Shown here: in pieces, positions 1-1,015 of the stretch
How the letters are laid out: each line of letters starts with the position of its first letter
Numbering within the stretch: the first letter of the stretch is position 1
Sequence record: OR846551.1
Length of the DNA: 1,015 bases
Reading direction: 5' to 3' (one strand)
From: a phage
Program-made: the position numbers

Positions 1-1015
1 GAGTAGATGCGGCGAACATCTCGCGCTTAGAAACGGGTAAGCAAAAACAATTTACCGAACAAACACTGAGTAATATTGCCAAGAGCTTAGGTGTTGATAT
101 TGCTGATCTCTTTACCTCTGCCCACAAAAGTAATACTGTATATAAAAACAGTAATAATGAGGATGTTGCGCAGGTGAAGGATGTGTTCCGTATTGAAATG
201 CTGGATGTCAGTGCCAGTGCGGGAAATGGCCTTATCCAGGGCGGTGATGTCATTGATGTGATTCATGCCATTGAATACAGAACTGATAATGCTGTATCGA
301 TGTTTGGCGGACGGCCAGCCAATCACATTAAAGTTATCAACGTTCGTGGGGACAGTATGTGTCCAACCATTGAGCCAGGAGATCTCATCTTCGTTGATGT
401 CAGTATCAATCAGTTTGATGGTGATGGTATCTATGTATTTGGTTTTGATGATAAAATTTATGTCAAACGACTTCAAATGATTCCTGACAAACTGCTGGTG
501 ATTTCTGATAACCAGATTTACCGTGAATGGGGAATTACCAGCGAAAATGAACACCGATTCATGGTCTTTGGAAAGGTCTTAATCAGTCAGTCGCAAACCC
601 TTAAGAGACATAATTAACCTCAATATCCCATCCATCGGCCACCGAAAGGTGGCTTTTTATTACCTATAAATTTGCATATCTCGCAAATACCACTTGCATA
701 TCTCGCAATTTAATTTTATCTTTTATTCCAGACCAACTACAGGATTACAACAAAATCTGGTTGCAACACGGTGCATGTGTCGTAAGCAGTCAGTAAATGT
801 CAAAAACGAACAGGCAGGACGCCCACGAAGTAGCCGCCTGGGGCATATGAAGTCCAGGATGATTCGTTGAGTCATGTTGTGCCACTAGGCACTCATGTTA
901 AAGCAGGTGTATGAAATGAAAGTCCAGATTTTAAACAATAACTGTGAAGTCGTTTGGTCATACGACATAGCCGCCCCTGTAGATCAGAGCGGCGATAGCT
1001 GGACCAATGGGAAAC

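Follow-up and report, generated by a model that had tools for sequence, protein, structure and literature searches.

What kind of gene stands behind the repressor of an SfII/SfV-like lambdoid prophage, and in which state of the prophage it would be expressed, are the questions raised by the 1,015 nt of phage DNA considered here (sequence record OR846551.1), the whole of which is hereafter called the window. The window corresponds to the left half of the immunity region of such a prophage and ends within an open reading frame (ORF), known as orf33 in phage SfV, of which it contains 33 codons plus 1 nt, stop-free from ATG 916 (ATG AAA GTC CAG..., encoding MKVQILNNNCEVVWSYDIAAPVDQSGDSWTNGK) to position 1015. 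A preliminary description, made from this sequence alone, presented the frame as an unrecognised gene starting directly under a repressor-controlled promoter, and as a likely site for an accessory or early function. As argued below, orf33 is a real, already catalogued gene that travels with a convergent partner in an exchangeable cassette, is placed behind operators shared with the rest of the immunity region and most plausibly belongs to the optional cargo of the early-left operon.

Judging from its substitution pattern, the orf33 frame is translated and under purifying selection, because over codons 1-57, which overlap no other gene, the ratio of nonsynonymous to synonymous substitution rates (dN/dS; pairwise Nei-Gojobori estimates, with ratios quoted where dS is unsaturated) lies at 0.12-0.33 between copies that are 46-68% identical in protein, and changes at third positions dominate, e.g. 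14/5/33 differences at codon positions 1/2/3. Besides, residues V3, W14, D23, G26, W29, L44, Q50 and P55 are invariant in an alignment extending down to 33% identity. The frame does not close within a few codons of the window edge but stays open for 91 codons in full-length copies, such as that of an Escherichia coli O157:H7 prophage (L001 6916-7191, 91 codons; RefSeq WP_021563905.1, 'hypothetical protein'). Early closing, absent from L001 and SfV, is met in SfII, where a mosaic breakpoint falls inside orf33: identity to the window ends at 957 (L003 5916-5963), the cassette is replaced from that position and the frame closes after 15 codons (MKVQILNNNCEVVWA, then stop) as a recombination remnant. 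An SfII-type junction at 957 also occurs in at least two IMG/VR contigs (L038 and L113), and frameshifted copies of orf33 are common (P0007, P0009, P0019, P0022 and P0023, the last on 126 contigs).

Regarding the start, SfV orf33 was annotated from an in-frame upstream ATG, at window 896 (MLKQVYE-M..., 98 aa), which is the sole difference between the two records of this gene. On comparative grounds ATG 916 is the better start, because it has its own Shine-Dalgarno sequence and because all diverged homologues begin with MKVQ(I/V), preceded by their own Shine-Dalgarno sequence 5-9 nt upstream; ATG 896 has none and is unconserved.

The protein is 100% identical to SfV orf33 over 91 aa and matches the profile of phrog_3195 with E = 3.8e-65 (residues 1-91 on profile positions 8-98 of 98). 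In other words, orf33 is already present in public phage records under the label 'hypothetical'; the designation as unrecognised holds insofar as the gene is real and matches no characterised family, and fails insofar as it had been annotated and placed in a PHROG, for which reason the novelty expected in orf33 itself is only weakly borne out. The 'orf33' of the SfI paper was considered as this gene and discarded, the gene numbering being different. The phrog_3195 family is small and confined to prophages of Enterobacterales, with homologues 33-68% identical in prophages of Salmonella, Klebsiella, Enterobacter and Yersinia, and the pair formed by orf33 and its partner is found in hundreds of E. 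coli, Shigella, Salmonella, Klebsiella and Yersinia genomes, O157:H7 included. A scan of one genome per species gave no true relative, and representative genomes are therefore mostly devoid of orf33. In some homologues (P0029, P0030 and P0031; L014 5001-5579, from Klebsiella aerogenes and others), an N-terminal extension of 65-90 residues precedes the orf33 domain; no Pfam match was obtained for the extensions of these 170-198 aa proteins.

The orf33 product is small, acidic and soluble, with no membrane-spanning hydrophobic segment found in its sequence. As the preliminary description had remarked from the visible N-terminus, there is no arginine-rich motif, the only two arginines in 91 aa being R45 and R46, none of them near the N-terminus. 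In a structural model of moderate confidence, a beta-hairpin is predicted at the N-terminus, followed by a long helix and then by a helix at the C-terminus. No relative was detected in Pfam, NCBIfam or PADLOC; in PADLOC-DB 2.0, no family reached E <= 1 for orf33 and the partner gave a chance-level match only, and PHROGs returned nothing but 'unknown function' families for both. Searches of PDB and BFVD by sequence or by fold (with the moderate-confidence model) detected no relative, and the orf33 profile against PDB sequences gave chance matches to beta-propeller repeats only. Three word-indexed homologue searches and one exhaustive HMMER scan yielded close unnamed relatives, with no fused informative domain. 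Profile and structure-based searches on the full protein thus reached no known family or fold, and the idea that it could be a well-known early protein is not supported.

As for its genetic setting, every context fetched has orf33 downstream of a prophage repressor and on its strand, as the first gene (in the window and L001 as had been expected from the sequence) or, in L006, as the second. The repressors are of two unrelated types, namely S24-type CI-like repressors of differing specificities in five contexts (window/L001, SfV, 720R4, L017 and L018) and short RacR-like helix-turn-helix (HTH) repressors of 129-136 aa in L006, L008, L012, L014 and L015. In the window, an operator-like word occurs twice between the repressor gene and orf33 (Table 1), and related words, TTGCTTATCACGCAA and ATGCATAACGCGCAA, are found between cI and cro of the same prophage, with four matches in all against 0.48 expected. 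Operator words shared with the phage's own right operator (OR) are present upstream of orf33 in 9 of 11 loci, that is the window and eight loci of other immunity, e.g. the palindrome TTAGCCATGGCTAAC in a Klebsiella aerogenes prophage and ATGTTGGATATCCTACAT in 720R4, both between the repressor terminator and orf33; in other immunity types, such words often flank a consensus TTGACA. Positions 672-722 would accordingly read as the left operator and early-left promoter (OL/PL), and because of these shared words orf33 is the first ORF of a repressor-controlled early-left operon, the promoter, transcription start and timing being those predicted from sequence. A consensus scan revealed no other promoter-like site between the repressor and orf33, and no plus-strand terminator was found between the putative promoter and orf33. 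The wording 'directly under' a repressor-controlled promoter needs amending on one point: operators do lie upstream (672-708), but a leader of about 195 nt separates the putative -10 box (717-722) from ATG 916.

Table 1. Features of the 1,015-nt window, numbered from its first nucleotide; coordinates in the O157:H7 prophage copy (L001) are added where available.
Feature	Position	Strand	Description
CI-like repressor gene, 3' part	1..617	+	HTH plus S24 peptidase type; full gene L001 5925-6617, 230 aa
Intrinsic terminator of repressor transcript	637..654	+	GGCCACCGAAAGGTGGCT then TTTTTAT; 7 pairs, 5 of them G-C, then T run
Operator-like repeat OL-a	672..686	+	TTGCATATCTCGCAA
Operator-like repeat OL-b	694..708	+	TTGCATATCTCGCAA; exact copy, 22 bp from OL-a
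Putative early-left promoter	694..722	+	-35 TTGCAT 694-699, 17-nt spacer, -10 TATCTT 717-722; read from sequence
Structured leader RNA	801..873	+	L001 6801-6873; about 65 nt; P1 805-810/862-867; GGC/GCC hairpin 813-815/821-823; P2 837-841/854-858
Left end of orf33/partner cassette	869..1015	+	524-bp cassette, L001 6869-7391; breakpoints versus L079, Kati and L040
Shine-Dalgarno sequence of orf33	904..908	+	AGGTG, 7 nt before ATG 916
orf33, first 33 codons	916..1015	+	91 codons in full, stop at window-equivalent 1191; spans the beta-hairpin and a conserved D-x-SG-x-x-W loop

The surmise that anything unusual would lie in this gene and beyond the 3' edge of the window proved sound with respect to what follows, as orf33 belongs to an exchangeable cassette together with a co-conserved convergent partner. 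In L079, whose repressor region is 99% identical, as well as in Kati and L040, identity with L001 ends at 6868 (window 868) and restarts at 7392, the intervening segment being replaced by 770 bp of other unknown ORFs (L001 6869-7391 compared with L079 9719-10488, L004 787-1556 and L040; flanks 94-99% identical). orf33 and its partner form a discrete 524-bp exchangeable cassette. The slot that receives it is bordered on one side by the conserved leader RNA described below and on the other by a conserved hairpin and an STnc100-like RNA; its alternative cargo consists of unknown PHROGs, often convergent pairs too, such as the overlapping pairs Kati CDS0003/0004 and the 86-aa/77-aa pair of YeP1. 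Among the 129 fetched phage loci that carry the leader RNA, to which all locus counts for this element refer, orf33 occurs in 26, downstream of the RNA in 23 and upstream in 3, and 84 have an upstream repressor and no orf33. That the cassette provides an optional accessory function is suggested because the slot is exchangeable, orf33 is present in 26/129 loci only, SfII retains a mere stump and frameshifted copies are common.

Some variations on this layout can be mentioned. In Yersinia-type loci (L017-L019), the cassette comes after PL and precedes the leader RNA rather than following it; by eye, ATCAACAG stands on either side of it (4990-5000 and 5500-5515), which could be a recombination joint or due to chance. 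Within the leftmost part of the cassette, window 871-899 has a predicted hairpin (CAUG-UU-GUGCC ACUA GGCAC-U-CAUG) situated between the leader RNA and the orf33 Shine-Dalgarno sequence, and the single-sequence fold of 866-930 has a free energy of -14.2 kcal/mol. In a Salmonella prophage (L006 3552-4706), a 384-aa protein with an HSDR_N domain (restriction-enzyme N-terminal nuclease-like) is encoded between the repressor gene and the operator-bearing promoter region; its location, which is that of lambda rexAB, suggests a lysogeny-expressed defence gene.

The partner gene, referred to as anti81, occupies L001 7354-7109 on the minus strand (81 codons; phrog_3311, a family with no function assigned), is convergent on orf33 and overlaps its last 83 nt in L001. 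A convergent homologue of anti81, overlapping orf33 by 74-176 nt, is present in every orf33 locus examined, including Yersinia and Klebsiella loci where gene callers annotated one of the two genes only. With a full-length dN/dS of 0.1-0.3, anti81 is likewise under purifying selection as far as substitution patterns tell, and within the overlap it is mostly the anti81 frame that is better conserved. Its family comprises 42 clusters, all 'hypothetical', is similar in size and host range to that of orf33, has no Pfam match and displays a conserved CC-x-C motif. The 5' untranslated region (UTR) of the partner (L001 7355-7430, minus strand) exhibits a conserved hairpin ACCAC...GUGGU (ACCGC...GCGGU in L012), which also scores as a minus-strand terminator, and a second helix in which CCUUUU pairs with the Shine-Dalgarno sequence AAAAGG, with variants CCUUCU/AGAAGG and CCUUG/CAAGG that are compensatory by eye; such a Shine-Dalgarno-sequestering helix suggests translational control of the partner.

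The explanation that would best accommodate these observations is that orf33 is silent in the lysogen and, upon loss of the repressor, becomes transcribed from the early-left PL-type promoter, with a leader of about 195 nt in front, and then provides an accessory early function that is optional. Its product may bind a protein of the host or of a rival phage, possible roles being host takeover, counter-defence or inter-phage competition, and not that of a core regulator. Because the partner gene is transcribed toward orf33, the two transcription units would interfere with each other, by polymerase collision and by antisense pairing across the shared 3' ends, and would tend toward opposite expression states, i.e. 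partner in the lysogen and orf33 after induction. A dispensable function of this kind fits with the common occurrence of frameshifted copies, e.g. P0023 on its 126 contigs. Taken as a whole, namely a real cassette gene driven by PL on derepression, endowed with an accessory protein-binding function and kept in the opposite state to its partner, the statement stands evenly balanced between being right and being wrong; the parts that were established above deserve far more confidence than this, and the biochemical role far less.

Several points weigh against this explanation, or at least against parts of it. Over codons 65-91, dN/dS is about 1 in the orf33 frame and the stop is variously located after 91, 93, 100, 108 or 122 codons, on account of which the clearly constrained domain is, by these sequence criteria, about the first 60-85 residues only. 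The -35 and -10 boxes of the window are weak, with 7/12 matches to the consensus, and escaped a scan requiring 9/12. In the Enterobacter-type loci L015 and L020, which are nearly identical, no shared operator word was found upstream of orf33 and a terminator-like hairpin stands immediately 5' of it. No promoter for the partner gene was identified in the conserved sequence upstream of it, and the model of opposite states is one suggested by gene arrangement. Finally, any biochemical role read from the size, charge and location of orf33 is a guess, and the missing fold match, obtained with a model of moderate confidence, is weak evidence.

Other readings of orf33 have to be weighed against the same body of evidence. 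It could be a spurious ORF, open only through lying opposite or next to a true gene, i.e. the partner, or within a conserved RNA; annotators indeed disagree, vB_EcoM-720R4 marking the partner only and RefSeq E. coli orf33 only, and the relaxed 3' third with its stop shifting from 91 to 122 codons would speak for such a frame. However, the codons with low dN/dS and third-position bias lie outside the partner gene, Trp, Gly and Pro positions are invariant across homologues 33-68% identical, and both the start and the Shine-Dalgarno sequence are conserved, which makes this reading barely credible. An N-like or Nun-like antiterminator or terminator protein would be in its proper place here, orf33 being the first ORF after OL/PL, behind a structured leader, as N behind nutL in lambda and Nun behind putL in HK022, and these phages lack a recognisable N. 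Lambda N-type antiterminators bind boxB RNA through an N-terminal arginine-rich motif and are needed for expression of the early operon; orf33, by contrast, is an acidic protein without such a motif, resembles neither lambda N nor HK022 Nun by sequence or profile (hmmsearch scores about 0 or below, hhalign probabilities of at most 0.7%), and is optional where N is universal, being limited to those 26/129 leader-RNA loci and absent from L079 despite its 99% identical repressor region. Since orf33 can be swapped, it is therefore not an essential regulator, and a function of the N or Nun kind is extremely improbable.

The preliminary description had also likened the position to that of lysogeny-associated genes such as lambda rexAB or sieB, in which case orf33 would be expressed in the lysogen to protect the host from other phages. 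The gene does adjoin the repressor and shares its strand, its slot is a variable hotspot of unknown cassettes where, as the HSDR_N protein of L006 shows, defence-like cargo gathers, and PL of the window is weak by consensus. This analogy has nevertheless lost ground and is now unlikely, for a strong terminator (637-654) follows the repressor gene, the operators are interposed between repressor and orf33, and no independent promoter-like site was found; the protein itself lends no support either, as it has no PADLOC match, no membrane segment, unlike SieB and RexB, and no profile similarity to these two, and frequent frameshifts in resident prophages are unexpected for a trait that benefits the host. 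Less probable again would be a toxin/antidote-like or addiction pair, in which the harm done by one product is neutralised by the second product or its antisense transcript. Strict co-occurrence with overlapping 3' ends in all loci examined, the small size of both genes, purifying selection on each and the helix sequestering the Shine-Dalgarno sequence of the partner, which suggests tight translational control, would all be in keeping with such a pair. Type II toxin-antitoxin modules are co-directional two-gene operons with a recognisable toxin or antitoxin domain; here, the layout is convergent, neither protein matches a toxin or antitoxin family in Pfam or PADLOC, toxicity is not indicated by any evidence, and frameshifted orf33 copies exist with an intact neighbourhood, leaving this possibility quite improbable.

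The reading of orf33 as an optional early-left gene is thus the one retained, and it brings the gene close to the early-left accessory genes of lambda and Rac (ral, sieB, ea10 and kil; ydaG, ydaF and sieB), which are small, dispensable and located between PL and the recombination genes. In Rac, even the convergent layout is found again, racR-ydaG-ydaF facing sieB with touching 3' ends. orf33 differs from them in being similar to none, and from SieB in having no membrane segment; profile comparisons with lambda N, Ral, Ea10, cIII, Kil, Gam, SieB and RexB, with HK022 Nun, and with Rac YdaF, YdaG, KilR, YdaE, RacC and SieB gave noise only. A likeness to morons and other variable-hotspot cassettes is also apparent, in that a unit of 524 bp with sharp borders is swapped for unrelated cargo between flanks 94-99% identical; in contrast to morons, orf33 was not found to have its own promoter or terminator and appears to depend on PL, and the cargo is a convergent overlapping pair instead of a single promoter-gene-terminator unit.

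Besides orf33, the leader itself harbours an element of interest, a structured RNA whose architecture consists of a closing stem (P1) around a GGC/GCC hairpin and a second hairpin (P2), with junctions CACGAAGUAGCYG and AUGA that are essentially invariant, though partly imposed by the search pattern. It is 82-100% conserved in 49 GenBank phage records, almost always unannotated, which besides Escherichia cover nine further genera (Shigella, Salmonella, Yersinia, Pantoea, Klebsiella, Citrobacter, Pectobacterium and Providencia, with 'Enterobacteria' records counted as one). It is also present in more than 100 IMG/VR contigs, a pattern scan of which retrieved at least 120 stretches. Across 47 distinct aligned copies, pairing holds in 95.7% of cells, against 20-43% for helices slid out of register, and 9 of the 14 pairs vary in a compensatory manner; none of 500 shuffles reached the observed covariation score. 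P1 exists in versions as different as CGAA/UUCG, GUCAUC/GAUGAC, CCACC/GGUGG and GGAAC/GUUCC, and P2 in at least six. The covariance model built from it (R1) scores 89.9 bits on the window, the sequence of which belongs to the R1 seed. Covariation thus supports a structured RNA, and the element is independent of orf33. In 116/129 loci it is preceded on its own strand by a repressor homologue, which usually ends 100-230 nt before the RNA core, and the element is usually present in one copy per phage, with none seen in the PR operon.

The obvious hypothesis is that this RNA acts in cis on early-left transcription or on RNA stability. In this respect, the put RNA of HK022, which suppresses terminators in cis through the zinc-binding domain of the RNA polymerase beta' subunit, offers the closest comparison: both RNAs are structured, measure about 65-70 nt, have highly conserved unpaired nucleotides and belong to early-left leaders of lambdoid phages without N. 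put nevertheless folds into two consecutive stem-loops, where the leader RNA has a closing stem with two internal hairpins, and the latter is mostly single-copy, not seen in the PR operon and variable in its distance to the promoter. Whether filters were left at default or switched off, model R1 did not match HK022 putL/putR (8.4 bits with E = 1.1, its best score in the HK022 region, falls outside putL/putR), and even with filters off it matched neither lambda nutL nor anything in Rac. No Rfam 15 family matched L001 5800-8000 at E <= 1 or window 620-930 at E <= 10, and a text search of the literature for the motif string found nothing relevant. Two candidate identities were rejected: the anti-sRNA AgvB, which is Rfam RF02702 and gave no match in the Rfam scans, and a hammerhead-like ribozyme, called to mind by the GAUGA and CGAA motifs, which by inspection would require its core strands to succeed one another differently around the three helices. 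The element was also encountered in the pre-early terminal repeat of T5-like virulent Providencia phages (vB_PreS_PR1, L027 2501-2550), with a fully compensated closing stem GGAAC/GUUCC, and is therefore not confined to temperate lambdoid phages. A second conserved leader motif, ...GCGCAGCAGG(U)UUAAACGUUCCGCC...GGCG..., occurs upstream of orf33 (L006 4880-4915, L008 4775-4830, L012 and L014), in many loci on one or the other side of the first RNA element, and also in orf33 loci devoid of that element.

By itself, orf33 adds little to what is known: SfV-like, Rac-like and related prophages carry it as an accessory gene already catalogued as 'hypothetical', and early-left regions of lambdoid prophages are familiar places for dispensable accessory cassettes. 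What is new lies in the proof of coding, in the assignment to a repressor-controlled operon in different immunity types, in the convergent partner as an obligatory companion, in the borders of the cassette and in the exclusion of the known families that were tested. Variable slots beside phage immunity regions have been a repeated source of defence and counter-defence systems, and the finding would matter if the pair turned out to be a defence or counter-defence switch. The leader RNA is the more useful by-product and potentially the more novel one, considering its strong covariation, invariant junctions, fixed position after the repressor in many genera and lack of an Rfam family, and it constitutes a testable candidate for the control or protection of early-left transcripts in lambdoid phages without N. 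Put as a single claim, albeit a doubtful one, either the orf33/partner pair is a new two-state accessory module or the leader RNA represents a new class of cis-acting early-left regulator. The former could consist of a lysogen gene and an induction gene coupled by antisense overlap, acting in phage-phage competition or counter-defence through a fold without relatives; the latter could be, e.g., a processive antiterminator of N-less lambdoid phages, put-like in action and unrelated to HK022 put.

As regards the rest of the window, the first 957 nt are 97.9% identical to Shigella phage SfII, positions 802-1015 are 98.6% identical to the DNA of phage SfV, and the full length is 98.4% identical to a prophage located beside tRNA-Thr/proA (thrW) in many E. 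coli O157:H7 genomes. In complete E. coli genomes, partial matches are found in 2009/5426 and matches covering at least 80% of the window in 398/5426. In SfII the repressor gene bears the annotation cI, and in E. coli that of an XRE family regulator. The terminator behind it was also reported in the SfII annotation, as a putative rho-independent terminator, and most related loci have a terminator 3' of the repressor gene as well. Just downstream of the cassette, L001 7434-7656 (plus strand) resembles the small RNA STnc100 (Rfam RF02076; 43 bits against a gathering score of 47, E = 2e-7), and this stretch appears in RefSeq as a 'frameshifted hypothetical protein' pseudogene.

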